This document shows, one piece after another, positions 3,344-25,654 of a stretch of 29,252 nt of DNA (positions are counted from its first letter, which is position 1; each line of letters opens with the position of its first letter). The position numbers were made by a program, and so were the translations under genes. Source of the DNA: Saprospiraceae bacterium (lineage in GTDB: Bacteria > Bacteroidota > Bacteroidia > Chitinophagales > Saprospiraceae); the NCBI GenBank assembly GCA_020850025.1, contig JADZFI010000045.1, positions 1 through 29,252 of the forward strand, written 5' to 3'. A model generated the notes under the pieces. That model was given only the letters and a program-made list of their open reading frames with translations, was not told the origin of the DNA and did not search any database.

Positions 3344-3402
3344 GCCGAAAACTATTGTAACTAAATCATTTTCACACATAACCAATGCTAAAAGAAGTGC
3401 TT

Positions 3403-6400
3403 ATGAAAAATTTGTTTATCACTGCCCTGCTTTTATTTTTCGGCAGTCTGGGCGTAAATGCTCAGGTTACCTACGAGGATTTTGAGGGCGGTACGCCCGA
3501 CCTCACCTGGACCGGCCTGAATGGCACCTATAATGGTGCGGTTCAAAATCCGGATCAAAGTGGCGTAAATATCAGTGAGTGGGTGGGTTCCTATACGAAT
3601 GCCCCAAATTTCGATTTCTGTTTTGCGTTGCACACTTTCCCGACCACCCTGGACATCAGTGAGTTCAACCAGTTCAAAATGAAAATCTGGTCGCCCACAG
3701 CCCCCAGTAAGGCTTTGCTGAAACTGGAAGGTCCGGGTGGCCCGGCGGTGGAAAAAATTGTGGATATTACCATTGCCAACCAATGGGTGGAGTACACCTT
3801 CGACCTTTCTGCGGGTGCCGGTTATACAAACCTGAAGACCATACTGGTGTCTTTCAATTCTTTCGTATTGGGAGACGACAAGACCTATTACTTCGACGAC
3901 ATTCGTGCTGAAAAAGCAGAAAACTGTTTGGCGGATTTTGAAGGACCGGGACTCAATTTTCAGGGCATTAACGGAATCCTCCTCGCTCCTGTAGACAATC
4001 CTGTTCCCAATTTTGTGAACAACAGTGCTCACTGCGCTGAATATGTCAAATCCCCTTTGCATGCTTACAGCCTGCTACTGGCAGATAATGGTACGCCCTT
4101 TGATCTCTCTGTGTACAATCAGTTCAATATTGACATCTTTGCCACTGCTCCAACACAGATTCTGTTCAAACTTGAAGGCGCAGGCGGTGGGTTTGAACAA
4201 ATAAAAAACATTGCAGTAACAGGCGCCTGGCAGACCTATTCCTTTGATTTTAGTGCCCAGGCTGCCAATACCGGACTAAGCAAGATCGTCATGTTCTTTG
4301 ACCCCGGGGTGGAAACAAGTGGAGATACCTATTACTTCGACAATGTTTGTGTGGTGCCGAGTCCTTGTAAAGATGTGGTGCCGGATCCTGACATTATTGA
4401 TGATTTTGAATGTAACCGGAATGCGACTTACACCGGTGATTGGAGCTTTTTCTCTGTTGTATCCAACCCGGCGCCAACGGGAGACAATAACTCTCCAAAA
4501 GTTGGACGTTTTGAGGACCCAAGCGGCCAGGGAACAGAATGGTCCAATCTTCAACTTGACTACGAAAATCCGATTGATCTTTCGGTGCGCAATCAATTCT
4601 CCTGCCAGTTATGGGCGCCCAAGGCCGGCAAATTGCTGATGAAAATTGAAGGTGGACCGAACCCTCCCAAAGAGGTCTTTATAGATGTAACAGAGCTCAA
4701 TAAATGGGTGACCTATACGGCCGATTTTTCCGATCAGGTAGGAAAGGGACACAAAAAAATTGTCCTGTTCTTTAATGCAGGCGTAAATGGCGAGCCCGGA
4801 GATGTGTACCATATTGACAACATCAAATTGTCTGCTCCAACCGCCGCTCCGCCGCTGGAAGATTTCCAGGACGGTATTCACCTCGGCTGGCAGCCACTTG
4901 ATCAAAACGAGCCTATTCATGGCGTTTTCCAGGGGCCGGTGAACAACCCAAATCCTAACGGCGTAAACAACTCCACTCAGGTGGGTTGCTACACAAAGGG
5001 TAGCTCTGCTTTCTCCACCTTGCAGGGCATTTCCCTGACGAATCTGGATCTCTCCATTTATGCGCAATTTAACCTCGATGTATTGAGCCCGGCCGTTGGC
5101 GGTACGGTGACGCTGATCCTGAATTCTCCTACCCAGGGCAATAAAGAGGCGGAAGCTGAGATTACTACGCCTGGTCAATGGGAGACACTCAGCTTTGACT
5201 TTTCTGCATTTAACGGCATCACCGACTTCGGTGAAGTGCGCATTATTTTCAATGCGGGAGTTGCTGCATTAGGTCAGGTCTGGTATTTCGACAACCTCCG
5301 TCAAACAGAAATTACCATCGACCCCTGTGCCGGTGTGGTACCAATTATTAATATCATTGACGACTTTGAGTGCCAGCGTAACTACACCCAGATCTTCTAC
5401 GGTGCAGATGATATTTCGGTGGTAAACAACCCGCACCTGACACCGGAAAACGGCTCACTAAAGGTGGGTGAATACAAGGATCCTGCGGGTGGAGGTACGG
5501 AATATGCCGGCATCGGTATTGAATTCCCTGCGGCTCCGGACCTGAGCGTGTACAACCACCTGTCTATGCTTGTTTGGTCGCCGGTTGCCAATGCTCCGTT
5601 CCTGTTCAAGCTGGAAGGCAACGGACCTGCAGTAGAGATTTTTGATACTGTGCCGGTAGCAAACGCCTGGTACAAGTTTGATATTGATTTCAGCGGAGCT
5701 GTGGGCACTGCGCACAACAAACTGGTTATTTTCGCTAATGTAGCCAGCGCCGTAGGTGGTGGTACTTATTATTACGACAATATCCGTTGGGCACGCGCCG
5801 GCTACAACGGCTGTATCGTGGATCACGAAGCGCCACAAACAACGCTTGGATTCAAATACTTCGCCAATGGATATCTGGAGGCTGCTGCCTATCAATTCGA
5901 AGTAATTGACAACCCAAATGCTTCCGGCATCAATACCAGCGGTAAGGTGGGTAAATTTGTTAAAGCAAAGGATGCCCTGCCATTTGCAGGTATCTACTCC
6001 TTCCCGGATCTGGAATCTCCTATCGACTGGAAAGGCGTGAAAACCGTTAAAGCCAAGGTTCACATGGACCACATCGGCAACTTTGCCGTGAAAGTGGAAG
6101 GTTCAGCTACAGGCGCTCCGGCATTTGAAATTCCGGTGGCCAATACCAAGATCAATGAGTGGGAAGAACTCACTTTCAACTTTGCCGCAGTACCGGACAA
6201 CGGAGAATACCGCCGTTTGACCCTGTTCTTCGATCTCGGAATTGATGCAACAGGACAAGACGTAACATCCTACTTCGATGATATCGTGATTGGCGACGGC
6301 AACTGTATCTCGGTTGGAACCTTCAGTCCGGAAGATATTGTGGCCATGCGCGTATCACCTAACCCAACCACAGAATGGCTGCTGGTGGAGAACATGGAAG

Positions 6401-6576
6401 AGGTAAGTCGTCTGGAAGTGTACGATATGTACGGACGCCGCGTAGCAGTGGCCAATACTTCCGGCGATACTACTACTGACCTGAATGTATCCCGTTTCCC
6501 TGCCGGCATGTACCTGTTGAATGGCTTTAACCGCCAGGGCATGCTGATAAGCAAGGCCAAGTTTGTGAAACAATGA
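3403..6576 (+). CDS. T9SS-secreted protein with six tandem ~150-aa CBM-like beta-sandwich repeats and no recognisable catalytic domain
   Basis: Likely start MKNLF at 3403 (alternative 3385), signal peptide ending VNAQ. Repeats share DFE, NP..xxN.S..VG, K(L/I/V)EG, W..(Y/L)xFDF and Y(Y/F/H)xD(N/D)(I/V/L) motifs. CTD VSPNP...PAGMYLL...KFVKQ. The CBM function is inferred. Confidence 0.8.
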   Translation: MKNLFITALLLFFGSLGVNAQVTYEDFEGGTPDLTWTGLNGTYNGAVQNPDQSGVNISEWVGSYTNAPNFDFCFALHTFPTTLDISEFNQFKMKIWSPTAPSKALLKLEGPGGPAVEKIVDITIANQWVEYTFDLSAGAGYTNLKTILVSFNSFVLGDDKTYYFDDIRAEKAENCLADFEGPGLNFQGINGILLAPVDNPVPNFVNNSAHCAEYVKSPLHAYSLLLADNGTPFDLSVYNQFNIDIFATAPTQILFKLEGAGGGFEQIKNIAVTGAWQTYSFDFSAQAANTGLSKIVMFFDPGVETSGDTYYFDNVCVVPSPCKDVVPDPDIIDDFECNRNATYTGDWSFFSVVSNPAPTGDNNSPKVGRFEDPSGQGTEWSNLQLDYENPIDLSVRNQFSCQLWAPKAGKLLMKIEGGPNPPKEVFIDVTELNKWVTYTADFSDQVGKGHKKIVLFFNAGVNGEPGDVYHIDNIKLSAPTAAPPLEDFQDGIHLGWQPLDQNEPIHGVFQGPVNNPNPNGVNNSTQVGCYTKGSSAFSTLQGISLTNLDLSIYAQFNLDVLSPAVGGTVTLILNSPTQGNKEAEAEITTPGQWETLSFDFSAFNGITDFGEVRIIFNAGVAALGQVWYFDNLRQTEITIDPCAGVVPIINIIDDFECQRNYTQIFYGADDISVVNNPHLTPENGSLKVGEYKDPAGGGTEYAGIGIEFPAAPDLSVYNHLSMLVWSPVANAPFLFKLEGNGPAVEIFDTVPVANAWYKFDIDFSGAVGTAHNKLVIFANVASAVGGGTYYYDNIRWARAGYNGCIVDHEAPQTTLGFKYFANGYLEAAAYQFEVIDNPNASGINTSGKVGKFVKAKDALPFAGIYSFPDLESPIDWKGVKTVKAKVHMDHIGNFAVKVEGSATGAPAFEIPVANTKINEWEELTFNFAAVPDNGEYRRLTLFFDLGIDATGQDVTSYFDDIVIGDGNCISVGTFSPEDIVAMRVSPNPTTEWLLVENMEEVSRLEVYDMYGRRVAVANTSGDTTTDLNVSRFPAGMYLLNGFNRQGMLISKAKFVKQ

Positions 6577-6643
6577 GTTTAGTTAGATTGGTTGCCCGTT
6601 GTCAGGCGGGCTCTGTTCCAAATTAAAACGATAAAACAATCGT

Positions 6644-6677
6644 ATTCGGGCGGCAGTACTAAGCCTGCCGCCCGAAT
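6644..6677 (+). other. Perfect 13-bp GC-rich intergenic hairpin (terminator-like or RNA-stabilising)
   Basis: ATTCGGGCGGCAG (6644-6656), loop TACTAAGC, CTGCCGCCCGAAT (6665-6677); only a short U run follows. Confidence 0.6.
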
Positions 6678-6722
6678 TTGGACAGCTTTCTGAGTGAAAT
6701 GAAGATCTTACTAAACCATGTT

Positions 6723-8891
6723 ATGAAGCATTTCCTCTTTTTAATTTTCCTGCTTTGGGGGGCAATGGCACACGCTCAGTCGCACTATGCCGGCATTGGC
6801 GCAGAGAACCCTCACTTCTCCCTGGACGAGGTACAAAAGCGGCATTTCCTCTATTTTTGGGAACTGGCGCACCCGGTCACCTTTCAGGTGCCCGATCGGT
6901 ATCCAACCGATCATTTTTCCAGTATTGCCGCCACCGGATTTGGTCTGTCGGCTTATCTGGTAGGAGCCGAACGCAAGTGGATTACCCGCGCACAGGCCGC
7001 TGAACGCGTACTACGTACGCTTGAATTTTTAAAAAACCTGCCTCAGGGTCCGGACGAATCCGGAACGGCAGGATACAAGGGGTGGTTCTACCATTTCCTG
7101 AAAACACAAGACGCGCTCAGATTTAAAAATGTTGAGCTCTCCAGCATAGACACCGGCCTGTTGATGGCAGGCGTGTTGTCGTGCATGACCTACTTCGACC
7201 GCAATACACCTACAGAAGAGGCCATCCGCAAAACTGCTGATTATCTATACCGCCAGATCGATTTCGGCTGGTTTATGAACGAACAAACGCGCCTGAGCAT
7301 GGGCTGGTTCCCGGAGCGCGACGGAGTCCTGGCTGCTGATTGGCGGGGGTACAACGAAGCCATGATCCTGAACATCATGGGTTTGGGTTCGCCCACCCAT
7401 CCACTACCCACCGAAACCTGGGAAAAATGGTGCGAGCCTTATTTCCGGGCTACGTTCATGGGGCAGGATCACGTCAACTTCGGCCCGATGTTCGGACATC
7501 AGTACAGCCATTGCTGGATTGATTTTCGGGGCATCCAGGATCCCTACATGAAAAAGATGGGAATAGATTATTTTGAAAATTCCCGTCGCGCCGCCCTGGC
7601 GCAACGCCAGTACTGCATTGAAAATCCCGGCCGGTTTAAGGGATATGGTCCCGAGATTTGGGGGCTTACCGCAGGCGATGGTCCGGATACCGATATGATG
7701 CATGAGGGCAAAAAAATCTATTGTCCGGGATATGGCGCCCGTGGCGTGGCCATTGATTATTTGGAAGACGATGGAACCATTGCCCCAACCGCCGCCATCG
7801 GTTGCATGCCTTTTGCACCGGAGGTGTGTTTGCCCACCCTGGAAGCTATGTGGAAACGCTGGCCGGTGGGTAAATATGGTTTTTTTGACGGGTATAATGA
7901 AACCTTCACCGAAATAGCGCGATCTCCCAAGGCGCAGCCCGGATATCCGTTCTGGGTGGATAAAGACTACCTGGGCATTGATCAGGGGCCTATTGTACTC
8001 ATGCTGGAAAATTACCGGTCCGGATTCTTATGGGATCTGATGAAGCGCAATCCGTACATCGTACGCGGCCTCAAGCGGGCAGGTTTCACCGGGGGCTGGC
8101 TCGATAAGGCAACCGCCGACCGAAGCGTTGATTTTTCCGGACAGGAGGCCAAGGTTGCCAGTCCAAATAAGCAAGTGCCGCTCGATCAGCACGGATTTTT
8201 CCAACGGGCCATTTATCAGGACAAGGAAGGCCACGCTCTGCCTTATCAGTTGATGACGCCCTGGCAAAAAAACTCTCCTAATGGTAAATATCCCCTGGTC
8301 ATTTTCCTGCATGGATCGGGCGAAAGAGGGAGTTTTAACCATGAACAAATGCGCAATGGCGTTCATGCCTTTTGCGAAACATGGGTGCGCGAAAAACATC
8401 CGCATTACCTGCTGGCCCCACAATGCCCGCCCGATATGCGTTGGGGCGGCAGCAGTAAAGACTGGCAAACCCTCTATCAGGAGAATCCCACTGTTCCCGG
8501 CCGCATGGTACTGGAACTGATAGAAAAGACCCTGGCCGAGCATCCTGATATTGATCGAAACCGAATTTACCTCACCGGCCTGAGCATGGGCGGGTTCGGT
8601 ACTTTTGATTTGTTGATGCGCAGGCCGGATTTGTTCGCTGCCGGGATGCCGCTGTGCGGTGGTGGCGATCCGCGTTATGCCGACAAAATTAAAAACATCC
8701 CCTTGTGGGTATTTCATGGTGCTCTGGACGATGTCGTGTATCCACGATGCTCCAGACAAATAGTGCAAGCGCTTAAAAAATCCGGCGGGAGAGTGCGTTA
8801 CACCGAGTTCTCTACGCTGTATCACGACATTTGGAATGTGGTGTATTACAATCCGGAAGTATTGGAGTGGTTGTTTGATCAACACAAGTGA
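6723..8891 (+). CDS. GH144-like glycoside hydrolase fused to a C-terminal alpha/beta-hydrolase serine esterase
   Basis: Likely start MKHFLF at 6723 with signal peptide ending AHAQ (track start 6678). GH part: SSIAATGFGLSAYLVGAERKW, GWFYHFL, ELSSIDTGLLMAG, WRGYNEAM, GPMFGHQYSHCWIDFRG, WGLTAGDG, LGIDQGPIVLMLENYRSG, ending AGFTGGWLD. Esterase part: FLHGSGERG, YLTGLSMGGFGT (GxSxG), FHGALDDVV, TLYHDIW. Confidence 0.85.
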   Translation: MKHFLFLIFLLWGAMAHAQSHYAGIGAENPHFSLDEVQKRHFLYFWELAHPVTFQVPDRYPTDHFSSIAATGFGLSAYLVGAERKWITRAQAAERVLRTLEFLKNLPQGPDESGTAGYKGWFYHFLKTQDALRFKNVELSSIDTGLLMAGVLSCMTYFDRNTPTEEAIRKTADYLYRQIDFGWFMNEQTRLSMGWFPERDGVLAADWRGYNEAMILNIMGLGSPTHPLPTETWEKWCEPYFRATFMGQDHVNFGPMFGHQYSHCWIDFRGIQDPYMKKMGIDYFENSRRAALAQRQYCIENPGRFKGYGPEIWGLTAGDGPDTDMMHEGKKIYCPGYGARGVAIDYLEDDGTIAPTAAIGCMPFAPEVCLPTLEAMWKRWPVGKYGFFDGYNETFTEIARSPKAQPGYPFWVDKDYLGIDQGPIVLMLENYRSGFLWDLMKRNPYIVRGLKRAGFTGGWLDKATADRSVDFSGQEAKVASPNKQVPLDQHGFFQRAIYQDKEGHALPYQLMTPWQKNSPNGKYPLVIFLHGSGERGSFNHEQMRNGVHAFCETWVREKHPHYLLAPQCPPDMRWGGSSKDWQTLYQENPTVPGRMVLELIEKTLAEHPDIDRNRIYLTGLSMGGFGTFDLLMRRPDLFAAGMPLCGGGDPRYADKIKNIPLWVFHGALDDVVYPRCSRQIVQALKKSGGRVRYTEFSTLYHDIWNVVYYNPEVLEWLFDQHK

Positions 8892-8926
8892 TAAAGCTCC
8901 GGACGATCTCATTTTACTCAATCGAT

Positions 8927-11161
8927 ATGCAATCAATCAAATCATTATCAACCACTGTAATAGTGCTGCTTTGCTGTTTAACCGGTTTGTTGGCACAGCC
9001 CTACAGGCCCTCTGCTGCCATCAATGCCCGGGTAGAAACCCTCCTTTCCAAAATGACGCTGGAGGAGAAGATCGGGCAACTCACCCTGTACACCACCGAT
9101 TGGGGAAGCACAGGCCCCACCATACGCGAGGGTTATAAGGACGATATTCGCAAGGGCGCCTGCGGGAACCTGTTCAACAGCCACTCCACGGCTTTTGTGC
9201 GCGAATTGCAAAAGGTGGCGGTGGAAGAAACACGCCTGAAAATTCCGCTGCTGTTTGGCTTTGATGTCATTCACGGCTACAAAACCATTTTCCCCATTCC
9301 CCTGGGAGAGGCTGCCAGCTGGGATCTGGAGGCTATCGAGAAATCGGCCAGGGTAGCCTCTACCGAGGCCAGTGCGGCCGGCCTCAACTGGACCTTTGCT
9401 CCGATGGTAGACATCAGCCGCGATCCGCGCTGGGGTCGCGTCATGGAAGGCGCCGGCGAGGACCCCTACCTGGGCAGTCGCATAGCCGAGGCACGCGTGA
9501 AGGGCATTCAGGGCAAAAAATTAGGCGATCCGGATGCCATGCTGGCCTGCGTGAAACACTTTGCCGGCTATGGCGCGCCCATGGGAGGCCGCGATTATAA
9601 CACGGTGGATATGAGTGAAAAGTATTTCCGGGAATTTTATTTACCGCCCTACCAGGCCGCCATCAATGCCGGTGCCGCCACGGTAATGACCTCTTTTAAC
9701 GATTACGATGGCATTCCAGCCTCCGGAAGCAAGTTTCTGCTCGATCAGATCCTGCGGAAAGAATGGGGATTTGAAGGCTTTGTGGTAACCGATTACACCA
9801 GCATCAATGAAATGGTGATGCACGGGGTGGTGGCCAACGATAAAGAGGCCGGTGAACTGGCTTTGAACGCCGGCGTGGATATGGACATGCAGGGCGGCAT
9901 TTATCAGGCCTATTTGAAAAAATCGCTGCAAGAGGGCAAAGTGACCCAGGCGCAAATTGATGAAGCCGTGCGCCGTGTGCTACGCCTGAAATTTGAACTC
10001 GGCCTGTTTGAAGATCCCTACAAGTTTTGCAATGCCGAGCGCGAAAAAAATACCCTGCTTGCGCCCGCCCACCGCGCAGCCGCACGTGAGGTGGCACGAA
10101 AATCCATTGTCTTGTTGAAAAACGACCAGGAGGTGCTTCCATTAAAACCATCACAGAAAATTGCCTTGATTGGCCCACTGGCCGATAACAAAACGGAACT
10201 CATCGGCAACTGGAACGGCGCCGGTAATTTCAATGATTGTGTCAGTCTCAAAGAAGGATTAAGTGGTGCAAACATGCAATATGCCAAAGGCTGCGAGCTG
10301 GACGGCGCCGATCGTTCCGGATTTCAGGAGGCCCTGCGCATTGCCGGACAATCAGATATTATTGTGGTGGCAGTGGGTGAAAAAGCCAATATTAGCGGAG
10401 AGGCAACTTCCAAAACACAGATCAACCTGCCTGGCGTTCAGGAGGAACTGGTGCTGGAGCTCTGCAAAACCGGCAAACCGGTGGTGGTCGTGCTGATGAA
10501 TGGTCGCCCGGTGGTGATACCGGGCATTGCCGAAAAGGCAAATGCTATTTTGGAAACCTGGTGGCTGGGCACCGAAGCCGGCAATGCCATAGCCGATGTG
10601 TTGTGGGGAAAATATAATCCTTCCGGCAAACTCCCGATGTCGTTTCCGCGCTCGGAGGGCCAGATTCCGGTGTTTTACAATGAGAAAAGCACCGGCCGCC
10701 CCTTCGACCCCAATTCCAAGTGGACCAGCAAATACATTGACGAATCAAACAGTCCGCAATGGCCCTTTGGCTACGGCCTGAGCTATACCAGCTTTGCTTA
10801 CACTACGCCCAAAGCGAGCGTTGAAACCGCCACCACTCGCGGTATTCCATCCGGTAAACAGGTGAAAGTGTGGGTGAGTGTAACCGTAAGCAATACCGGA
10901 AAAGTAGCCGGCGAAGAAGTGGTGCAGTTATATATCCGCGACCTGGTGGGCTCTACCACCCGCCCGGTGAAGGCATTAAAAGGATTCCGCAAAATCATGC
11001 TGCAACCCGGAGAAAGTCGTGAAGTCCGTTTCGACCTTACGGCCGACGACTTGAGTTTTTACCGCAGTGATAATACATTTGGCATGGAACCCGGAGAGTT
11101 CGACATCATGGTGGGCGGCAGCTCCAATGATGTGAAATCGGTGCGTATCAGAGTGAATTGA
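8927..11161 (+). CDS. bglX: GH3 beta-glucosidase (BglX type), secreted/periplasmic
   Basis: Likely start MQSIK at 8927 (GTG at 8888 is the alternative). Motifs DVIHG, RDPRWGRVMEGAGEDPYL, CVKHFAGYG, GFVVTDY (nucleophile Asp), SGEA, PFGYGLSYT and a C-terminal Fn3-like domain GEEVVQLYIRD. Confidence 0.93.
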   Translation: MQSIKSLSTTVIVLLCCLTGLLAQPYRPSAAINARVETLLSKMTLEEKIGQLTLYTTDWGSTGPTIREGYKDDIRKGACGNLFNSHSTAFVRELQKVAVEETRLKIPLLFGFDVIHGYKTIFPIPLGEAASWDLEAIEKSARVASTEASAAGLNWTFAPMVDISRDPRWGRVMEGAGEDPYLGSRIAEARVKGIQGKKLGDPDAMLACVKHFAGYGAPMGGRDYNTVDMSEKYFREFYLPPYQAAINAGAATVMTSFNDYDGIPASGSKFLLDQILRKEWGFEGFVVTDYTSINEMVMHGVVANDKEAGELALNAGVDMDMQGGIYQAYLKKSLQEGKVTQAQIDEAVRRVLRLKFELGLFEDPYKFCNAEREKNTLLAPAHRAAAREVARKSIVLLKNDQEVLPLKPSQKIALIGPLADNKTELIGNWNGAGNFNDCVSLKEGLSGANMQYAKGCELDGADRSGFQEALRIAGQSDIIVVAVGEKANISGEATSKTQINLPGVQEELVLELCKTGKPVVVVLMNGRPVVIPGIAEKANAILETWWLGTEAGNAIADVLWGKYNPSGKLPMSFPRSEGQIPVFYNEKSTGRPFDPNSKWTSKYIDESNSPQWPFGYGLSYTSFAYTTPKASVETATTRGIPSGKQVKVWVSVTVSNTGKVAGEEVVQLYIRDLVGSTTRPVKALKGFRKIMLQPGESREVRFDLTADDLSFYRSDNTFGMEPGEFDIMVGGSSNDVKSVRIRVN

Positions 11162-11284
11162 CATTGGACTGTTAGACAATGGACGATGGACTTGGGCTCG
11201 GTAAGCTTGAAATGATTATTTACCCCGAGCCCAAGTCCATCGTCCAATATCCAACAGTCCAACGTCCAACAGTCCAACGTCTAA
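11157..11284. repeat. Inverted-arm 7/8-mer array element, TGGAC family, copy A (between bglX and susC)
   Basis: Left arm ATTGACA TTGGACTG TTAGACA ATGGACG ATGGACT; right arm AGTCCAT CGTCCAA TATCCAA CAGTCCAA CGTCCAA CAGTCCAA CGTCTAA. Perfect 22-bp stem 11180-11201/11225-11246 around the core TAAGCTTGAAATGATTATTTACC. Confidence 0.92.
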
Positions 11285-11299
11285 AATTAACCATTCAAT

Positions 11300-14230
11300 A
11301 TGAAGCACTTATACAAAAAAAACTCTTTGCTTGCCTTGTTTGTGACGTTGCTTGCTGCAACCTCGTGGGCCCAGGTCAAAGTTACCGGCCGTGTGGTGGA
11401 CGAACCCGCCGGCGATGCGGTTATCGGCGCAACGGTCCGTGAAAAAGGCGCTCCCAATGGCGCCATCACCGATTATGACGGCAACTTCAGCATCACGGTG
11501 AAAGACCTCAATGCCACGCTCGTGATCAACTACACCGGCTATCTTGCTCAGGAAGTACCGCTCAATGGCAGAAGTACTGTAGAGGTAAAACTGCTGGAAG
11601 ACGATGGTATTCTGGAAGAAGTAGTGGTGGTGGGGTATGGCATTCAGCGCAAAAGCGACCTCACCGGATCGGTGGGGTCAGTGAAGGCCAAGGAGCTGGA
11701 GCGCATTCCCACGGCATCGCTGGAACAGGCGCTTCAGGGTAAAATGGCCGGCGTATACGTATCTCCCTCCAGCGGCGAGCCAGGCGCCGGCGCTGTCATC
11801 CGTATTCGCGGTACCGGTACGTTGAACAATGCCAGTCCGCTGTTTGTGGTAGACGGGATGTTGCTCGACGACATTTCCTTCCTTAACCCACAGGACGTTG
11901 CCAGCGTGGAGGTTTTGAAAGACGCCTCTTCGACGGCTATTTACGGCAACCGTGGCGCCAACGGGGTAATCATCATTACCACCAAACGTGGTCTTACGGA
12001 TACCAAAGCATCGGTTACGCTCAATTCCTATTATGGTACCCAGCAGATTGCCAGAAAACTGCCCCTGGCCAATGCTTCCCAGTTCGCGGAGATGTACAAC
12101 GAGCTCAAGGGCAATAATTTTTATCCCGATCCGGCGGCGCTGGGAACGGGCACAGACTGGCAGGATGTCATTTTCCGCGATGCCCCCATGGCCAGTGTGC
12201 AATTGGGCGTAGGCGGTATCTGGAAGAAAATCAACTACAACGTTTCCGGAAACCTCTTCGATCAGCAAGGTATTATGGAGGAAACCGGATTCCGCCGTTA
12301 CACCGGACGCCTGAATGCAGAATATCCGGTGTTGAAAACCCTTCGGGTTGGAACCAACCTGGCTTATTCCAACAGCAAATTCAATACCGTTGGCGGCGGC
12401 GTTCTGGGAGGAATGTACCGCATGCCTCCTGTCTTTGGCGAGCGCGACAGCACCGGCAAGTTCACCGATCCAACCTTTTTCGGACAGTCGATCGGTAATC
12501 CTGCCGCTGATTTGTTTTACAAAAATGATCAGCACACACGGTCCAATCGCTGGGTAGGTACTGTTTATGCCAACTGGACCTTCCTGAAGTATTTCACCTT
12601 CCGCACCAATTATGGTTTCGACAGCCGAAAGGATTATTTTTATGGCTTTGAACCCATCTTTATGGTGTCGTCTTCCCAGTTGAACAACCTGGAGCGCACT
12701 TCCAGAGATTCGTCCAGGTTCCAAAACTGGCTCTGGGAAAACACCCTCACTTACGACCGCAGTTGGGAAGATTTTCGTTTGAATGTACTGGCCGGGCAAA
12801 CGGCGCAGGAGTTTACCTTTAAGAAGCGCCGTACCATTAATAATGTTCTTCAGCCCAATGGGGAAGAGTTTAGCGACTGGGCCATGCTCAGCTATCTGGG
12901 TCGGGTAAATGCTACCTTCTTCGACCGTTATCTGCTTACGGCTTCTTTGCGCGCGGATGGCTCCTCCCGTTTCAACAAAAACAACCGCTGGGGCTATTTC
13001 CCTTCCGTTGCGGCCGGCTGGAATATTTCGCAGGAACCCTTTATGCGCGGGTTCAAACTGTTTGACCGCCTGAAATTGCGCGCCTCCTGGGGGGTAACCG
13101 GTAACGACAAAATCCAGAACTATCCATCGCTCGGTATCATCACGCCGGAGCTGTATGGGGCATTCAATGATACCATACAATCCGGCGCCACGCTTACCAA
13201 TTACGCCAATGCCGATGTTCGCTGGGAAACTACCGAGCAAACAGATATTGGTTTGGAGTTTGGCCTGTTTAAAGGCCGCTTTACAGCAGAGATTGACTGG
13301 TTCAGGAGGTTTACGTATGATATTTTGGGCGATTTGCCCATTCCGGACGATGTGGGCTCCGGCAGCAATCCGTTTGTGAATGCAGCACAAGTAGAGAACA
13401 TAGGCTGGGACTTTACAGTGAACTGGCGCGAAGTGAAGCGCAAGTTTTCCTACAATCTGGGTATAAACGTTTCTCCCATTCAAAACAAAGTGCTCAAACT
13501 GAACGACGGAAAATCTGAAATCTTTGAGGCACGCACTGCCCAGGGCGACTTCGCCACGCGGACGGTAGTGGGGCAGCCTATTGGCGCTTTCTACGGATAT
13601 CAGGTAGCCGGTGTGTTCCAGAACCAGGAAGAAATAGACAGCTCCCCAAATTTCGGCAACGAGCAGCCGGGCGATTTTCGTTTTGCCGACCTGAATGGCG
13701 ATGGAGTGCTCTCGGCCGACGACCGTACGTACCTGGGCAGCCCGATTCCTACCCTGATCTACGGCTTTAACGCCGGATTTGAGGTCTCCGGGTTTGATGT
13801 GGCTTTTGATTTCTTCGGTGTGGAGGGCAACAAGGTGGTGAATGCCAAGGCAGTGGCCCGTTTTGATACGCCCAACTGGGAAGCCCTCTGGTACGAGAAC
13901 CGCTGGACCGGAGAAGGCGCCAGTAATTCCGTTCCGCGGGTTACCAATGGTGGACACAACTACAGAATGTCGGACTTCTTGGTGGAAGACGGCGGCTTTT
14001 TCCGTCTGCGCAGCGTGGTGCTGGGATATACCCTGCCTAAAAAATGGCTGAGTGCAGCGGGCATCAAGGCAGCCAGACTGTATGCCAGCGGCACTAATTT
14101 GTGGACCAAACAGGCATATTCAGGCTTCACGCCGGAATTCCCCAACGACAGCGTGTTCCGAGCCGGGATGGACTACCTGAACTATCCAATGGCAAGAACA
14201 GTGTTATTTGGTTTGAACGTAACCTTCTAA
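11300..14230 (+). CDS. susC: SusC/RagA family TonB-dependent outer-membrane transporter
   Basis: Signal peptide; N-terminal carboxypeptidase-regulatory-like domain; plug motifs EEVVVVGYG, DLTGSV, PLFVVDG, LKDASSTAIYGNRGANGVIIITTKRG; ends GLNVTF; immediately followed by a SusD gene. Confidence 0.96.
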   Translation: MKHLYKKNSLLALFVTLLAATSWAQVKVTGRVVDEPAGDAVIGATVREKGAPNGAITDYDGNFSITVKDLNATLVINYTGYLAQEVPLNGRSTVEVKLLEDDGILEEVVVVGYGIQRKSDLTGSVGSVKAKELERIPTASLEQALQGKMAGVYVSPSSGEPGAGAVIRIRGTGTLNNASPLFVVDGMLLDDISFLNPQDVASVEVLKDASSTAIYGNRGANGVIIITTKRGLTDTKASVTLNSYYGTQQIARKLPLANASQFAEMYNELKGNNFYPDPAALGTGTDWQDVIFRDAPMASVQLGVGGIWKKINYNVSGNLFDQQGIMEETGFRRYTGRLNAEYPVLKTLRVGTNLAYSNSKFNTVGGGVLGGMYRMPPVFGERDSTGKFTDPTFFGQSIGNPAADLFYKNDQHTRSNRWVGTVYANWTFLKYFTFRTNYGFDSRKDYFYGFEPIFMVSSSQLNNLERTSRDSSRFQNWLWENTLTYDRSWEDFRLNVLAGQTAQEFTFKKRRTINNVLQPNGEEFSDWAMLSYLGRVNATFFDRYLLTASLRADGSSRFNKNNRWGYFPSVAAGWNISQEPFMRGFKLFDRLKLRASWGVTGNDKIQNYPSLGIITPELYGAFNDTIQSGATLTNYANADVRWETTEQTDIGLEFGLFKGRFTAEIDWFRRFTYDILGDLPIPDDVGSGSNPFVNAAQVENIGWDFTVNWREVKRKFSYNLGINVSPIQNKVLKLNDGKSEIFEARTAQGDFATRTVVGQPIGAFYGYQVAGVFQNQEEIDSSPNFGNEQPGDFRFADLNGDGVLSADDRTYLGSPIPTLIYGFNAGFEVSGFDVAFDFFGVEGNKVVNAKAVARFDTPNWEALWYENRWTGEGASNSVPRVTNGGHNYRMSDFLVEDGGFFRLRSVVLGYTLPKKWLSAAGIKAARLYASGTNLWTKQAYSGFTPEFPNDSVFRAGMDYLNYPMARTVLFGLNVTF

Positions 14231-14343
14231 TTGGACGTTGGACTGTTGGACGATGGACGTTGGACTTTTGCTCGTTAAGCTTGAGATGATCATTTACCCC
14301 GCGCCCAAATCCAACGTCCATTGTCCAACTGTCCAACGTCCAT
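14231..14343. repeat. Inverted-arm 7/8-mer array element, TGGAC family, copy B (between susC and susD)
   Basis: Begins at the base after the susC TAA: TTGGACG TTGGACTG TTGGACG ATGGACG TTGGACT; core TAAGCTTGAGATGATCATTTACCCCGCGCCC; right arm AATCCAA CGTCCAT TGTCCAA CTGTCCAA CGTCCAT. Same core and orientation as copy A. Confidence 0.92.
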
Positions 14344-14371
14344 CATCTATAAATTGTAAACGATCAGGCTT

Positions 14372-15862
14372 ATGAACAAGCTTTTAAAATATCTCAGCGC
14401 AGCAGTTATGGTGCTGCTTTCCATCACCAGTTGCCAAAAAGACTTCCTGGAGCGCCGGCCGGAGGGTCGCCTCACTTTCGAGGAATTCTTTCAAATAGAG
14501 GCACATGCCATAGAGGCCACCAATGCCGTGTATGCTCAGTATCGGGAATTTGATCTGGTTGCTTTGCCTTATCTGGCTTGCACCGATATCCTGAGCGATG
14601 ATGCGGATAAAGGTTCTACCCAGAACGACGCTCCCTTGATCAGCGACCTGGATAATTTCACCCTGGATGCCACCAATCCTTATGTGGCGCCCGTGTACCG
14701 GGGCCATTACCGCGCCATTGCCAGGGCTAATCTGGCCATTGAAAACATACCGAACATTGAGATGGATGCTGCTCTGCGTGACCGGCTGGTGGGGGAGTGT
14801 AAGTTCCTCAGGGCGTATAGTTACCTGCTGCTGGTACAATGGTTTGGCGATTTGCCGCTCATCACCAGAACCCTTCAGGGCGACGAGTACTACTCCCAGA
14901 CCCGCCAGGATAAAAGTCTGATATATGATCAGATTGAGGCTGATCTCAAAGATGCCATCAATGCACTGCCCGATAAAGCCGGATATGCACAGGCAGATAA
15001 GGGTCGCGCTACCAAGGCGGCCGCACAGGGTCTGTTGGCCAAGTTGTACATGATCAAACACGATTGGGCGGCTGCGGAAACACAGTGCATGGACATCATC
15101 AACAGCACTCAGTACAGCCTGTTGACACGCTATGCCGACAATTTCCTGCCCGTGGGTGAAAACGGCGCAGAATCTATTTTTGAAATGCAGGCGGTGGCTC
15201 TGCCCACCCAGCAAGCTGCCGGGCCGGGCGCTTCTCCTTTCAATATGGTGCAGGGAGTGCGCGGTATTCCCAATTTGGGCTGGGGCTTTAACCGGCCTTC
15301 TGATAACCTGGTGTCTGCCTATGAAAATGGCGATCCAAGGCGGGAGGCCACGATCATTTATGTTGGGGAAATTCTGCCCGATGGGTCCACTCAGGTACAG
15401 GACAATCCTGAGATCATCAACGAGCGTTTCAACCAGAAAGCATGGGTGCCGGCCCACCCCGGTTTGCAGGACAATGGTCCGGGCAATATCCGGGTACTTC
15501 GTTATGCAGACATCCTGCTGTTGGCTGCCGAGGCTAAAAACGAACTCGGCAAATCCGGCGAAGCCTTGCCGCTCCTGAACCAGGTGCGCAAACGCGCCCG
15601 TGGTACCAATAACTTCATTCTGCCGGATATTACAGTAACTGACCAGGCCATGCTGCGCGAACGAATTTACCGCGAGCGCCGGGTGGAACTGGCCATGGAA
15701 CAACACCGCTGGTTTGATCTGCTGCGCTGGGGCCGGGCCGCTCAGGTGATGCAGGCAGTGGGCAAAGCCAATTTTGTGCCCGGCAAACATGAACTGCTGC
15801 CCATACCGCAAACTGAAGTGGATTTGACCAGCGGTCGAATTACGCAGAATCCGATGTACTAA
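14372..15862 (+). CDS. susD: RagB/SusD family glycan-binding lipoprotein
   Basis: Lipobox ITSC; SusD motifs IARANLAI, GECKFLRAYSYLLLVQWFGDLP, RYADILLLAAEA, ERRVELAMEQHRWFDLLRWG, QNPMY. Confidence 0.95.
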   Translation: MNKLLKYLSAAVMVLLSITSCQKDFLERRPEGRLTFEEFFQIEAHAIEATNAVYAQYREFDLVALPYLACTDILSDDADKGSTQNDAPLISDLDNFTLDATNPYVAPVYRGHYRAIARANLAIENIPNIEMDAALRDRLVGECKFLRAYSYLLLVQWFGDLPLITRTLQGDEYYSQTRQDKSLIYDQIEADLKDAINALPDKAGYAQADKGRATKAAAQGLLAKLYMIKHDWAAAETQCMDIINSTQYSLLTRYADNFLPVGENGAESIFEMQAVALPTQQAAGPGASPFNMVQGVRGIPNLGWGFNRPSDNLVSAYENGDPRREATIIYVGEILPDGSTQVQDNPEIINERFNQKAWVPAHPGLQDNGPGNIRVLRYADILLLAAEAKNELGKSGEALPLLNQVRKRARGTNNFILPDITVTDQAMLRERIYRERRVELAMEQHRWFDLLRWGRAAQVMQAVGKANFVPGKHELLPIPQTEVDLTSGRITQNPMY

Positions 15863-15922
15863 ACGGCTGACGGCCTACGGCCTACGGTTGACGGCTTACG
15901 GTTGACGGCCTACGGCTTACGG
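15860..15922 (+). repeat. Nine-unit degenerate heptamer array NNNACGG (single arm) starting in the susD stop codon
   Basis: TAAACGG CTGACGG CCTACGG CCTACGG TTGACGG CTTACGG TTGACGG CCTACGG CTTACGG, in exact 7-nt phase. Confidence 0.93.
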
Positions 15923-15984
15923 AGCCCCGGCGCTTTGATATCTACCGGGAAGGTGGTATGAGGCGCCGGGGCTTTTTGTTTTTT
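15923..15984 (+). terminator. Intrinsic terminator closing the PUL
   Basis: AGCCCCGGCGC (15923-15933) / GCGCCGGGGCT (15963-15973), an 11-bp stem with a 29-nt loop, followed by TTTTGTTTTTT. Confidence 0.8.
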
Positions 15985-16348
15985 GAGGGTAAAATGCATC
16001 CGGGAAACCCCTTATTTATGGTGAAAACGCAGGTTTTTGCTCCTTTTGTCAGATGGGCGGCATTTTGCCGATTTCGAAAATGCTCAGGCAATAATCCATG
16101 TGGCCCGAGGGTTTTACTATTGTTCCATTCATGATTACTTGCAAAAACCGACTACACACCGCTCTCCTGTTTGCGCATGATTGAAATGCTACCATTAACC
16201 TAATCCATAACCCAAGGCTGTTTTACACAGCCCGTTTTCTCCTACAGTTGAATGCCAGAAATTGCCGGGCTACTTCTCCCGGCATGGAGAGCGCTTGCGC
16301 TTTCTGAACAGACATTCTCATTTTTAACCTTCTAACTCATTTTCAATC

Positions 16349-17293
16349 ATGAACAGATCAAAATTTCAATGGCTCTTGCCGGTCTTCGCTTTGTTGACTT
16401 TTGGCATTATTTCCTGTTCAAAGGATCAGGATACCGATCAGGATAAAGCCCGACTTCAAATGGAAATTACTGATGGGCCCTGCGATGATCCCAACGTAAA
16501 AGCTGTTTATGTGACCATTGCGGAAGTCAAAGTGGACGGACAAACCTTCAGCGGGTTTACCACAAAAAAAACCATTAACCTCCTGGCATACCAGAAAGGG
16601 GAGGTAGCCGCTCTGGGGCTGGGTGAATTGGAGGCAGGCGCTTACCAAAACATTACCCTCGTGTTGGATGCCCAGACAGATGCTCAGGGGAATGCGCCTG
16701 GCTGCTATGTGGAAACCTTTGACAATGTGAAACACGCGCTTACCAGTAATGCGACTATGACCATTACTACCGCAAAAGACTTTACGCTGTCGGCCGGTTC
16801 CACCACACAACTAGTGCTTGATTTCGATTTGCGCAAGGCAGTTCAATATTCAGGCGGAAGCGCTTCGGATCAGTTTGATTTTGTGACATCCGCCAATCTC
16901 CAGACAGCTCTCCGCGCAGTGGTTAAAACGCAGTCCGGACATGTGCAGGGTACCTGCCAGAATGCCATTGTGAATACCGATAAAATTGTAGCATTCGTGT
17001 ATAAAAAAGGCACATTTAATCGCAATGTGGAGCTTTCCTCAGAAAACGGCATTGCGTTTAAAAATGCTGTGGCCAGCGCCTCAGTAGAAGCCAACGGTTC
17101 CTTTAAAGTGGCTTATCTGGAAAGCGGCGACTATGAAGTACACTTTGCAGCGTATAAAGACCTTAACAGCGACGGGAAACTGGATTTCCAGGGAACCCTC
17201 ATTCTGAACAGCCTGTTAGACCTGGAGGATTTGCAGGTGGGCGCTAATGCTGAAGTGCAGCTGAGCCTGACGGTCATAGGAATCTTGCCCTGA
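16349..17293 (+). CDS. DUF4382-domain lipoprotein
   Basis: Lipobox IISC; DUF4382-type motifs ITDGPCDD..VKAVYVTI.EV.VD, INLL, LEAG.Y..I.L.L and LVLDFDL.KAV. Confidence 0.8.
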   Translation: MNRSKFQWLLPVFALLTFGIISCSKDQDTDQDKARLQMEITDGPCDDPNVKAVYVTIAEVKVDGQTFSGFTTKKTINLLAYQKGEVAALGLGELEAGAYQNITLVLDAQTDAQGNAPGCYVETFDNVKHALTSNATMTITTAKDFTLSAGSTTQLVLDFDLRKAVQYSGGSASDQFDFVTSANLQTALRAVVKTQSGHVQGTCQNAIVNTDKIVAFVYKKGTFNRNVELSSENGIAFKNAVASASVEANGSFKVAYLESGDYEVHFAAYKDLNSDGKLDFQGTLILNSLLDLEDLQVGANAEVQLSLTVIGILP

Positions 17294-17340
17294 TTTTTCC
17301 TGCCTTAATGTTCGCAGTTTACTGTAAGTGGTTTAAAAAC

Positions 17341-17376
17341 AAGCCATCCCGGTGTCCATCGGGGTGGCTTTGTTTT
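17341..17376 (+). terminator. Intrinsic terminator after the DUF4382 gene
   Basis: AAGCCATCCCG-GTGTCCAT-CGGGGTGGCTT (one G-U pair) followed by TGTTTT. Confidence 0.7.
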
Positions 17377-17671
17377 GTGTAGGAAGCATTTGTTGTGAAT
17401 ACGGTGTGGTCGTTCAGCGACAAAATCAGTACGTTGGTCTATGCCGAACATTTTCATGCAGCCTTCCTGTAACATGCAGCTCTTTGCCAGAGTCTGATTT
17501 GGCAGAGTTGAATTTTGATGGGGTTCAGAGGTGCAGCAGCAGAAGGCTTTTCCGTTCATCCTGAAAAAATGGCCTTTCATACATGAGAACTGGGTATTGG
17601 TAGGTTCTATGTTTTGCAAGTTACCGAAAGACTTCATCTTTGTATCGAAAACAAAAACACCCCTGCTATTT

Positions 17672-17714
17672 CTGGACATTGGACGTTGGATTTTTAGACG
17701 TTGGACATTGACGG
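17672..17714 (+). repeat. Orphan TGGAC-family array arm upstream of the TonB-dependent receptor gene
   Basis: CTGGACA TTGGACG TTGGATTT TTAGACG TTGGACA TTGACGG; no complementary arm seen nearby. Confidence 0.8.
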
Positions 17715-17748
17715 AGATTCGCGTTCGGCAGGGACAACTAATTAAGCT

Positions 17749-20214
17749 ATGAAATCAAATTACTTTCTGCCACTGGTGGTGGTAGTGCTCACCTCTTTGG
17801 GGGTTTCGGCACAAAAAATTGCCGGAACCGTGCTGGAAGCCAGTGGCCAGCCTGCCGGATATGCTACTGTGACCCTCCATCAGGTAACTGATTCCGTGCT
17901 GGTTAAAGGCGCCATCACCGGCGACGACGGGTCTTTTGAAATTCAGGGCGCTGCCGTCGGAAGATACTTTCTAAAAGCCAACCTTATGGGCGCCGGCGGT
18001 GAATCTACACCTGCTTTTGACTATGATGGCGGAAATAAGACCATAGAAGCCATTTCTCTCCGGTCTGATGAAAATAAATTGGCTGAAGTTACGGTCGTTG
18101 CCCGCAAACCTCCGGTAGAAGTAAAAGCCGACAAAACCATTCTCAATGTAGAAGGTACGGTCAATTCCACTGGTTTGAATGCCCTGGAATTGCTCCGTAA
18201 AGCGCCGGGCGTTACCGTTGATAACAATGAAAATGTAAGTGTCCGTGGTAAAAATGCCGTGAAAATCATGATCGACGGCCGGGATGTGCCGCTCGACGGT
18301 AAAGAGCTGGCGGCATTGCTGAAAGGCACTCAGGCTTCAGATATTGCCAATATCGAGATCATTTCCAACCCCTCTGCCAAATATGATGCAGCCGGTAATG
18401 CCGGGATCATCAATATCCGGATGAAGAAAAACAAGGCTTTCGGCACCAATGGCAACTTCGGGCTGGAAGGTATCTATGGCGAAACTTTTAAAGCCGGCGG
18501 CAACGTCAGCCTGAACCACCGGGCAAAGAAATTCAATGCCTTCGGGAGTTTTAATGCACACCATGGCGACTGGCACAACACCCAATACTTCCATCGGGAA
18601 CAATATCTGGATGACTTGCGGTCCGATGGACAGCAGGGAGAGGACTGGCGGGTATTTGAACAGAGCAACAAAGAATACAGCGAAAACAGATACCGGGGGT
18701 ATCGCGCCGGTGTAGACTGGTTCCTTAACAGCAAACACACGGCGGGGGTACTGGTAAACGGCAGCATGAACCCGGGAGGCTGGCACTCCAGCAGCATAAC
18801 AAAGATAAGCGATCTGCACAGCATTAACAGGATAGATTCATTGCTGGTGGCCACCAACGACATGGAAAACGACCGGAATGACCTGAACATTAACCTGAAC
18901 TATCGCTTTGCCGATACTGCCGGCCATACCCTGAATATTGACCTGGATAAGGGCTCTTATCGCATTCGCGGCGCCAGTTTCCAGCCCAACTATTACCGCT
19001 CTGCCGACAACTCCGAAATCCTGCGCGAGGCCATTTACCGAAATAGCACACCCACCGACATCAACATCATGACAGCGCGGGTGGATTACGAGCAGAAACT
19101 TTGGAAGGGTACGCTGGGCCTGGGTGGCAAGATTTCGGATGTGGAAACCTTCAACACCTTTGATTTTTTCAATGTGCAAAACGGCATTCCGGTGAAAAAC
19201 GAAACCCAGAGCAACTCTGTGGATTACAAAGAACGAACCAATGCGGCTTATATCAACTATAACCGGGCATTTGGTAAAAAATGGAACATTCAGGCCGGAT
19301 TGCGACTGGAAAACACAGATTACAAGGGTATAGGGAAGGATTCTGTGTTCACCAACAACTACACGGAGTTGTTCCCGAGTGCAGCTGTAACCTATTCCAT
19401 CAACAAAAAACTGGGTTTGAATGCTACCTACAGCCGTCGTATTGACCGGCCGAGTTACCAGGATTTGAATCCGTTTGAAAACAAGTTGGATGAACTGACC
19501 TACCAAAAAGGCAATCCCATGTTGTTGCCGCAGTTCACCAACTCTATCGAACTCAGCCCTACGTTTAACGGATTCCCGGTGCTTACCATCGGGTATAGCC
19601 ATACCAACGATGTATTCACCCAAATCCTGAAACGAGATGTTCGCGACACCCGGGCCACCTTCATGACACAGGAGAATCTGGCAGACCAGAGAAACTGGAC
19701 CATCAGCCTGAACGCCCCAACCCCAATAGCCAAATGGTGGGATGGCTTTGTGAGCATCACCGCATTCCGCAGCCATTTCCGGGCCGATTTCAGCACGCCG
19801 GAAACCCCGGATTTTGTGGTGGATCAGGCGTATAATGCCTTCAATGCCTTCGCGGAACAAAACATAAAGCTGCCCAAAGGCTTTGGCCTGCAAATTTCAG
19901 GCTGGTACAACAGCCGCGCTTTCTGGGGCACGCTGCGCAGCAAACCACAAGGCGCTATGGACATCGGCTTGCGCAAGAAAGTGCTGCACGACAAAGGCGA
20001 ACTGCGCTTGCGCGTAGGCGATGTGCTCGGAACAGCAGGCTGGGGAGGCGAAAACCTGTTCAGTCCCGGACTCAAAATGCTGGCCAACGGCACATGGGAA
20101 AGTCAAACGGTAACCCTCAATTTCTCCTACCGTTTCGGCTCCACCGAGGTAAAAGACGCCCGCCAGCGCAAAACAGGCCTCGAAGACGAGAAGAACAGAG
20201 TGAAAGGAAAGTAA
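17749..20214 (+). CDS. TonB-dependent receptor (outer-membrane beta-barrel family) with N-terminal carboxypeptidase-regulatory-like domain
   Basis: Signal peptide; LAEVTVVARKPPVEVKADK, LELLRKAPGVTVD, IMIDGR, IEIISNPSAKYDAAG..GIINI, QAGLRLENT, YSRRIDRPSYQDLNPF, GNP.L.PQFT, TLNFSYRFG. Confidence 0.9.
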   Translation: MKSNYFLPLVVVVLTSLGVSAQKIAGTVLEASGQPAGYATVTLHQVTDSVLVKGAITGDDGSFEIQGAAVGRYFLKANLMGAGGESTPAFDYDGGNKTIEAISLRSDENKLAEVTVVARKPPVEVKADKTILNVEGTVNSTGLNALELLRKAPGVTVDNNENVSVRGKNAVKIMIDGRDVPLDGKELAALLKGTQASDIANIEIISNPSAKYDAAGNAGIINIRMKKNKAFGTNGNFGLEGIYGETFKAGGNVSLNHRAKKFNAFGSFNAHHGDWHNTQYFHREQYLDDLRSDGQQGEDWRVFEQSNKEYSENRYRGYRAGVDWFLNSKHTAGVLVNGSMNPGGWHSSSITKISDLHSINRIDSLLVATNDMENDRNDLNINLNYRFADTAGHTLNIDLDKGSYRIRGASFQPNYYRSADNSEILREAIYRNSTPTDINIMTARVDYEQKLWKGTLGLGGKISDVETFNTFDFFNVQNGIPVKNETQSNSVDYKERTNAAYINYNRAFGKKWNIQAGLRLENTDYKGIGKDSVFTNNYTELFPSAAVTYSINKKLGLNATYSRRIDRPSYQDLNPFENKLDELTYQKGNPMLLPQFTNSIELSPTFNGFPVLTIGYSHTNDVFTQILKRDVRDTRATFMTQENLADQRNWTISLNAPTPIAKWWDGFVSITAFRSHFRADFSTPETPDFVVDQAYNAFNAFAEQNIKLPKGFGLQISGWYNSRAFWGTLRSKPQGAMDIGLRKKVLHDKGELRLRVGDVLGTAGWGGENLFSPGLKMLANGTWESQTVTLNFSYRFGSTEVKDARQRKTGLEDEKNRVKGK

Positions 20215-20356
20215 GTGTTTGAGTTTACGAGTGTTCGAGTGTTCGGGTTGGCGCTCGGCTTGGTAGTTCAAGGAGTCTTTGCAAAAAGGCGTCAGCCTTA
20301 GAAAATACCAGGCCGAACGCCAACTCAAACACTCGAACACCCAAATACTCGAACAC
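20215..20356. repeat. Inverted-arm octamer array element (GTGTTYGR family) directly after the receptor stop codon
   Basis: GTGTTTGA GTTTACGA GTGTTCGA GTGTTCGG + inner arm GTTGGCGCTCGGCTTGGTA (20247-20265); 40-nt loop; inner arm TACCAGGCCGAACGCCAAC (20306-20324; 17/19 Watson-Crick complementary) + TCAAACAC TCGAACAC CCAAATAC TCGAACAC. Confidence 0.92.
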
Positions 20357-20399
20357 TTTTCAAGATAATGAAAGTTTGATTTGGTTTATCGGAGAAAGT

Positions 20400-20433
20400 A
20401 ACCCCGCCGTCGGAAAGATGCGCGGGGTTTTTT
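20400..20433 (+). terminator. Intrinsic terminator between convergent genes
   Basis: AACCCCGC (20400-20407) / GCGGGGTT (20422-20429) followed by further T residues. Confidence 0.7.
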
Positions 20434-20485
20434 ATTGATGTTATTATACCATACCGTATCGGGAAAATCGCCTTTGCAATAGTCT

Positions 20486-25566: not shown

Positions 25567-25594
25567 CTTACGACTTACGATGTACGACTTACGA
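25567..25594 (+). repeat. Left heptamer arm of the four-helix-bundle cassette
   Basis: CTTACGA CTTACGA TGTACGA CTTACGA. Confidence 0.9.
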
Positions 25595-25601
25595 TTGGGG
25601 T

Positions 25602-25633: not shown

Positions 25634-25654
25634 GAAAATATTCAATTTATCCAA

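Follow-up and report, generated by a model that had tools for sequence, protein, structure and literature searches.

The two hairpin elements that bracket the susC-type TonB-dependent receptor gene of a Saprospiraceae bacterium are, with high probability, two cargo-less members of a genome-wide family of palindromic repeats, and we found nothing that points to a role specific to susC. The elements, copy A and copy B, lie in a 29,252-nucleotide (nt) stretch of DNA (GenBank contig JADZFI010000045.1 of assembly GCA_020850025.1; hereafter the window), in which a GH3 beta-glucosidase gene is followed on the same strand by susC and susD. The window is contig C45 of an assembly, here called G000, that comprises 3.41 Mb in 531 contigs and is 76.5% complete. 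We refer to two related species as G006 and G031, and we use "dialect" for elements that share one repeat-unit sequence.

Results

Sequence inspection, repeat searches and folding confirmed the two hairpins and their common orientation, both of which had been proposed from the sequence in an earlier reading (the original prediction; Table 1). Copies A and B form a direct repeat of 86% identity over 112 nt, at a spacing of 3074 nt, and the complementarity of their arms is 90% in copy A and 86% in copy B. The left arm of copy A consists of five 7/8-nt NNTGGAC units and an inner stem. RNA folding of copy A (-68.2 kcal/mol, z -11.4) gave an inner stem of 22 bp with no interruption, and folding of copy B (-65.3 kcal/mol, z -9.2) gave a broken inner stem with near-perfect outer arms; both inner stems are as the original prediction had described them. 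It was also correct that each element fills nearly the whole of its intergenic gap. The GH3 stop codon TGA falls within the first, degenerate unit of copy A, whose start was otherwise read 3 nt past this stop, and 15 nt separate the element from the susC ATG at 11300. Copy B begins directly past the susC TAA, and 28 nt lie between it and the susD ATG at 14372. The loop motif common to A and B has no other occurrence in this genome. An Rfam search of positions 11000–20500 at a permissive threshold returned only sub-threshold look-alikes of eukaryotic microRNA precursors, as any long hairpin gives.

Searches of the G000 assembly with blastn and an nhmmer profile revealed 55 loci of the same family, about 30 of which score above 60 bits. 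There are 27 full-length copies with a conserved core, and 4 copies lie at contig ends. In the architecture of the family, tandem 7/8-nt NNTGGAC arms surround a conserved inner stem of 9 bp and a ~23-nt loop. A and B had 11–21 times the k-mer depth of susC in an activated-sludge metagenome, and contigs broke inside the two elements, as is expected for multi-copy repeats. TGGAC copies start 3–25 nt past a stop codon, and about 10 of them lie between convergent genes. Between same-strand genes, 6 copies are oriented with the genes and 4 against, an absence of bias that leaves little weight to the shared orientation of A and B. Bracketing is not peculiar to susC, because two unrelated genes on contig C124, one of the DUF4197 type and one LOG-like, are each enclosed by two family copies. 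That contig holds five TGGAC copies at four junctions (6096–8493 and 19566–19713), and two of its copies adjoin divergent genes at their start codons, which shows that stop codons are not the only anchor of the class.

Within the family, the closest copy to B is A (85% identity in the core; next best 79%). More generally, two copies on the same contig share a mean identity of 0.85, compared with 0.72 in all remaining pairs (permutation p 0.0007). When 185,579 species genomes were scanned for the core pattern, 13 matches were obtained, and the two in Bacteroidota were inspected. The one in the Chitinophagales metagenome-assembled genome UWPOB_CHIT8, which is G031, is a genuine family member and assigns the organism of the window to Chitinophagales, and the one in a Cyclobacteriaceae metagenome-assembled genome is not a member. 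The other 11, which were left uninspected, fall in unrelated and mostly GC-rich taxa and are presumed to be chance matches.

Comparison with the two related species separated the histories of the two copies. The SusC orthologue of G006 has 88% protein identity, and GH3, susC and susD each show 77–80% DNA identity to both G006 and G031; since this divergence is uniform, susC has had no separate history. The spacer between susC and susD is 26 nt long in G006 and 31 nt in G031, and the element is absent from both. The alignment of the three species shows copy B, ~113 nt long, as an insertion with the TAA immediately before it and the native spacer, which is retained, immediately behind. Thus, copy B is specific to the lineage of G000. 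Eleven species of the genus were compared: 4 have strong structure (z at most -5) at the susC-susD junction, formed by unrelated sequences, and in 3 the junction measures only 0–33 nt.

The GH3-susC junction, in contrast, is occupied in all three species, by arms and cores that differ. It holds the TGGAC hairpin in G000, a single CCATCGT-type arm in G006, and ACGG/CCATCGT arms enclosing a palindromic core of ~200 nt in G031. The same was found at the four C124 junctions that carry the five TGGAC copies: hairpin elements stand at the same places in G006 and G031, with ACGG-type arms and with cores exchanged in modules, and one G031 core at these junctions shares the inner-stem sequence of the G000 family. 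Taken together, the GH3-susC and C124 comparisons indicate that the occupancy of junctions is conserved and that their content is replaced in a concerted way. The ~200-nt core of G031 recurs within ACGG arms at an unlinked beta-helix/cyclase junction, as a dispersed module nested in heptamer arms.

The TGGAC family is itself one of several dialects of heptamer-armed palindromes found at gene boundaries across this Chitinophagales genus. In G000, Tandem Repeats Finder (TRF) found that tandem repeats peak sharply at periods 7 and 8; 596 arrays, belonging to several unit types, are intergenic. Using crude gene calls based on the longest open reading frame (ORF), we placed 229 of these arrays at most 10 nt from a stop codon and 88 at most 10 nt from a start codon, and we counted a hairpin of at least 35 bp, with G-U pairs disallowed, at 414 of 2307 gene junctions (18%). 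The window contains GAGTGTT-type and CTTACGA-type elements in addition to the ACGG type.

Arms of this kind also enclose a gene. In G000, each of the four PF05635 (23S_rRNA_IVP) genes is enclosed by inverted 7/8-nt arrays, and the dialect differs from gene to gene. Five relatives gave the same picture, inverted short-unit arrays enclosing 23 of the 23 genes inspected. One G031 case has ATTGGAC arms, and one G006 case has CCATCGT arms, as at the GH3-susC junction of that species. The window carries one such cassette (Table 1), and the ~495 nt that it comprises are missing at the orthologous site in G031. It has TTAC on both sides, versus a single TTAC in the empty G031 site, and TTAC also occurs within the repeat unit. 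The PF05635 gene, which encodes a four-helix bundle and not a known transposase, is the sole cargo that we found between such arms, and a TGGAC-armed PF05635 gene was not found in this incomplete assembly. Because PF05635 genes lie between arms of like kind, A and B look like members, without cargo, of a class that also has a form with this gene as its cargo.

We also considered a link between the TGGAC family and transposases of the RAYT type, and rejected it. The 76%-complete genome has three Y1 genes (PF01797, RAYT/IS200-like), on contigs C400 (10767–11105), C409 (11771–12115) and C254 (4395–4739), and they are flanked by other, GC-rich repeats. For the C254 gene, these repeats are ~58-nt tandem units in inverted orientation. 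With their own GC-rich repeats, the three genes look like separate systems of repetitive extragenic palindromes (REPs) and REP-associated tyrosine transposases (RAYTs).

At the RNA level, the sequence has no U-tract or T-run after copy A or copy B, and a terminator scan of the window gave no terminator-like site at either. The scanner, designed for sigma-70 promoters and terminators, is not suited to promoters of Bacteroidota, and it overlooked the large-loop stem after susD, which was hence read directly from the sequence. Both the heptamer elements after susD and the element at 20213–20358 are succeeded by a terminator-like stem with a T-run. Given the lack of a U-tract at both copies and the terminator-like stem after susD, A and B are probably transcribed through within a GH3-susC-susD message. 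RNase III cuts the stems of ORF-bearing intervening sequences (IVSs) of 23S rRNA (PMC4990558), and of 20 genomes of the genus, 19 encode this enzyme. On these grounds, RNA of A and B could plausibly be cut by RNase III, or might instead be shielded from 3' exonucleases.

Features of the locus

Table 1. Positions of the repeat elements and neighbouring features in the window.
Feature	Position	Strand	Basis	Parts and remarks
GH3 beta-glucosidase gene	8888–11161	+	Pfam	
Copy A, TGGAC-unit palindromic element	11157–11284	+	Inverted-repeat search, RNA fold, nhmmer E 1.4e-28	Left arm 11160–11201; loop 11202–11224 (23 nt); right arm 11225–11266; extra right-arm units to 11284
susC-type TonB-dependent receptor gene	11300–14230	+	Pfam	Bracketed by A and B
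Copy B, TGGAC-unit palindromic element	14231–14343	+	Inverted-repeat search, RNA fold, nhmmer E 3.3e-25, alignment with empty sites	Arms 14232–14274 and 14300–14342; loop 14275–14299
Native susC-susD spacer	14344–14371	+	Aligns with the entire 26–31-nt spacer of the relatives	Kept 3' of copy B
susD gene	14372–15862	+	Pfam	
ACGG-type heptamer array, then GC-rich stem and T-run	15863–15985	+	Repeat search, sequence reading	Single arm
Third TGGAC-unit array	17668–17710	+	Repeat search, comparison with G031	Single arm
PF05635 cassette	25567–26065			Four-helix-bundle gene 25676–25969; inverted CTTACGA/TGTACGA heptamer arms

Among the enzyme genes of the locus (1478–11161) are two PF10091 ("glucoamylase", GH144-like) genes and the GH3 gene, with susC and susD coming last. 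A type IX secretion system (T9SS) sorting domain is present in one PF10091 gene, and a fusion to an alpha/beta-hydrolase in the other. The same part of the window also encodes a protein that has a T9SS sorting domain along with a CBM_4_9 match. The array that follows susD consists of nine phased ACGG-type heptamers, starting from the susD stop codon, and lacks a complementary arm; the stem and T-run behind it likely mark the end of the transcription unit. The third TGGAC array stands ~40 nt upstream of a TonB-dependent receptor gene at 17749 and belongs to an insertion of ~65 nt that is missing at the orthologous site in G031; like copy B, this array is specific to G000. The GAGTGTT-unit hairpin at 20213–20358 is orthologous in G031, where the units and inner stem are the same and the palindromic core is different and longer. 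It is followed at ~20400–20435 by a terminator-like GC stem with a T-run, which is conserved in G031.

Comparison with known repeat systems

The best-described match to these elements is the class of heptameric intergenic repeat arrays, GGGAATC in Xanthomonas and GGGGAYT in Nostoc (Rehm et al. 2015, PMC4692102). Of their two neighbouring ORFs, the Xanthomonas arrays lie nearer to the upstream one (28 nt on average), often less than 50 bp from its stop codon; they form 70–75 convergent inverted pairs per genome, which are possible stem-loops, and they are mostly transcribed (PMC4692102). The TGGAC family resembles them in its tandem 7-nt units, its intergenic position near the upstream stop codon and its inverted arms. 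It differs in that NNTGGAC units hold only a GG pair and are not G-quadruplex formers, and in that the arms enclose a conserved stem-loop core common to ~27 copies. In further contrast to the Xanthomonas and Nostoc arrays, coexisting dialects replace one another here at orthologous junctions, and there are cargo-bearing versions with a PF05635 gene. TAACTGA repeats, which occur in Beggiatoaceae, cyanobacteria and some Bacteroidetes (MacGregor 2015, PMC4679880), are mainly direct repeats just upstream of start codons and differ from the elements described here in this respect. The literature on small dispersed repeats of cyanobacteria yielded nothing usable for comparison.

A and B correspond only partly to the definitions of REP/REPIN elements and of MITEs (miniature transposable elements with inverted repeats). 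REPs are imperfect palindromes of 20–40 bp, with 5–13-bp stems and an unpaired GTAG or CGTC tag (PMC3733652). Like REPs, bacterial interspersed mosaic elements (BIMEs) and REPINs (PMC3116915, PMC3733652), the TGGAC elements are high-copy extragenic palindromes at gene ends and within operons; both have been proposed to stabilise the upstream mRNA, and REPIN doublets form long hairpins. In contrast to REPs, however, A and B are 128 and 113 nt long with 42–45-nt arms made of tandem units, and CGTC occurs in them only inside paired ACGTCC units and not as an unpaired terminal tag. Unlike in REP/REPIN-RAYT systems, none of the three PF01797 genes is flanked by TGGAC arms in this 76%-complete genome.

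The resemblance to MITEs of the Correia or ERIC type lies in the ~30 dispersed copies of 100–150 nt with inverted arms, and in presence/absence differences with recognisable empty sites, namely that of copy B in G006 and G031 and that of the array at 17668–17710 in G031. A parent insertion sequence with the same ends and a transposase was not found, unlike for MITEs, the only cargo being PF05635. Correia elements are ~100–150 bp long, give rise to a duplication of a TA target site, and end in inverted repeats that are non-repetitive. The arms of copy B, in contrast, are arrays of tandem units, and a target duplication was not seen at this copy. Like A and B, the Correia (CREE) elements of Neisseria are intergenic inverted-repeat elements whose presence varies among related genomes, and they are described as able to bind RNase III and to be either cleaved or protected by it (PMC2649163); small mobile repeats of the MITE type have been reviewed (PMC3184786, PMC2229807). 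Finally, the ORF-bearing IVSs of 23S rRNA, such as the one encoding S23p in Coxiella burnetii, share with A and B terminal inverted repeats that form a long stem, and their ORF belongs to PF05635 (PMC4990558). A and B differ from these IVSs in having no ORF and in lying between protein-coding genes instead of in 23S rRNA, and their cutting by RNase III is a prediction.

Discussion

The data show that the elements have spread into gene boundaries by copying or gene conversion, neighbouring copies being the most alike. The GH3-susC junction was already occupied in the ancestor that G000 shares with the two relatives, and a TGGAC-type element later replaced its content. Copy B is a new insertion of ~113 nt between the susC stop codon and the native spacer. 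Judging from their sequences, B was probably copied from A; otherwise both may have been copied from one nearby source, in either case after the split from G006 and G031. Both copies would be transcribed within the GH3-susC-susD message, and in that RNA each may form a ~45-bp stem open to cutting by RNase III, as the stems of 23S rRNA IVSs are. Cutting would separate the cistrons and could alter their relative stability. Such an effect on RNA would be a by-product of a tolerated selfish or neutral repeat and not a device evolved for susC.

Several observations weigh against this interpretation. Junction occupancy that is conserved in three species could mean that the hairpins are useful and not merely tolerated. 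No transposase or other mobilising enzyme tied to the TGGAC family was found, and no target-site duplication is visible at copy B in the alignment. As for the RNA, the RNase III gene (rnc) was not found in the incomplete G000 genome, G.U mismatches outnumber A.C mismatches only weakly on the sense strand of the hairpins (130 vs 103, p 0.09), and a count of compensatory changes in the arms revealed no clear coupling of variants. The contigs of the one metatranscriptome were short and of low depth and provided no direct RNA evidence. The crude gene calls that underlie the census of arrays and junctions must be added to this list.

The original prediction had offered two functions for the pair, of which the first was that the hairpins set the stoichiometry of SusC and SusD relative to the enzymes. 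As dedicated signals inside the operon, they would be cut by RNase III or would block 3' exonucleases at the borders of susC, so that the susC/susD message outlasts that of the enzymes, as with the malE-malF REP hairpin of E. coli. The location of A and B within a probable single transcription unit, without a U-tract, accords with this proposal, as do stems long enough for RNase III, the occupied GH3-susC junction in three species and the strong structure (z at most -5) that unrelated sequences give the susC-susD junction in 4 of 11 species. However, the two nearest relatives lack copy B and have spacers of 26–31 nt, spacers in 3 of 11 species are 0–33 nt long, and the same element stands at ~30 unrelated junctions and brackets unrelated genes. 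There is, in addition, neither a preference in orientation nor a significant sign of selection at the RNA level. These findings undermine the stoichiometry claim and make dedicated signals at susC improbable; because the nearest relatives do without copy B, the idea of an RNA signal survives as a general property of the class and not as a susC device. That the hairpins act instead as terminators or attenuators, which stop or pause RNA polymerase and leave susC and susD each in need of its own promoter, would agree with the ~10 family copies that lie between convergent genes directly past stop codons, the usual place for a terminator. We consider this very improbable: a T/U-run is absent after both A and B, separate terminator-like GC stems with T-runs occur after susD and at 20400–20435 (the latter conserved in G031), the 15 and 28 nt before the next ATG leave little room for a promoter, and susC and susD are tightly coupled in the relatives.

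The second proposed function, that the repeats provide homology by which susC can be deleted or exchanged as a cassette, rested on the two same-orientation copies, 86% identical and 3074 nt apart. The longest run shared exactly by A and B is only 12 nt, and RecA recombination usually needs ~25–30 bp, so deletion or swapping driven by homology is unsupported. Three independent metagenomes contained no deletion joint in the form of a GH3-susD fusion contig, and their contigs carry both elements in place; the sole apparent skip, of 3085 nt, carries the loop of the family copy on contig C117. GH3, susC and susD are, moreover, equally diverged from both relatives (77–80% identity). We know of no function that SusD would have without SusC. 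The idea of a recombination module is thus already largely refuted, and we give it almost no credence. A different possibility, compatible with the genome-wide repeat family that we favour, is that the 7/8-nt units are putative DNA or RNA sites for a sequence-specific protein, for which the four-helix bundle of the IVP/Avd-like type is a candidate, and that this protein drives the copying of elements or controls their neighbours. The strict, dialect-specific phasing of units speaks for such binding arrays, as do the inverted arrays of a single dialect around every PF05635 gene examined and the concerted way, as opposed to scattered point changes, in which arms differ at orthologous junctions. 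A TGGAC-armed IVP gene, however, was not found in this assembly, and we regard the proposal as a minority possibility worth keeping in mind.

We extend the repeat-family interpretation of A and B to a broader model only speculatively, and as a whole it is rather unlikely to hold. Heptamer-armed palindromes may form one widespread class whose full form carries the IVP/Avd-like gene and whose cargo-less form enters cistron boundaries precisely, by copying or conversion that short matches to the repeat unit seed. Their RNA would be cut by RNase III, splitting operon messages and possibly retuning cistron ratios with each new copy, such as B, and a dedicated mechanism would keep dialects uniform within a genome.

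For the biology of this locus, the bracket around susC is best seen as the local footprint of a genome-wide repeat and not as a designed regulatory or recombination device. An element of this kind can be added exactly at the stop codon within a working susC-susD pair, and junctions remain occupied across species while their arms and cores are exchanged. Arms of like kind also enclose the gene for the 23S rRNA IVS protein. Should the message be cut at the hairpins, every element gained or lost would re-divide a polysaccharide-utilisation operon into stable pieces.

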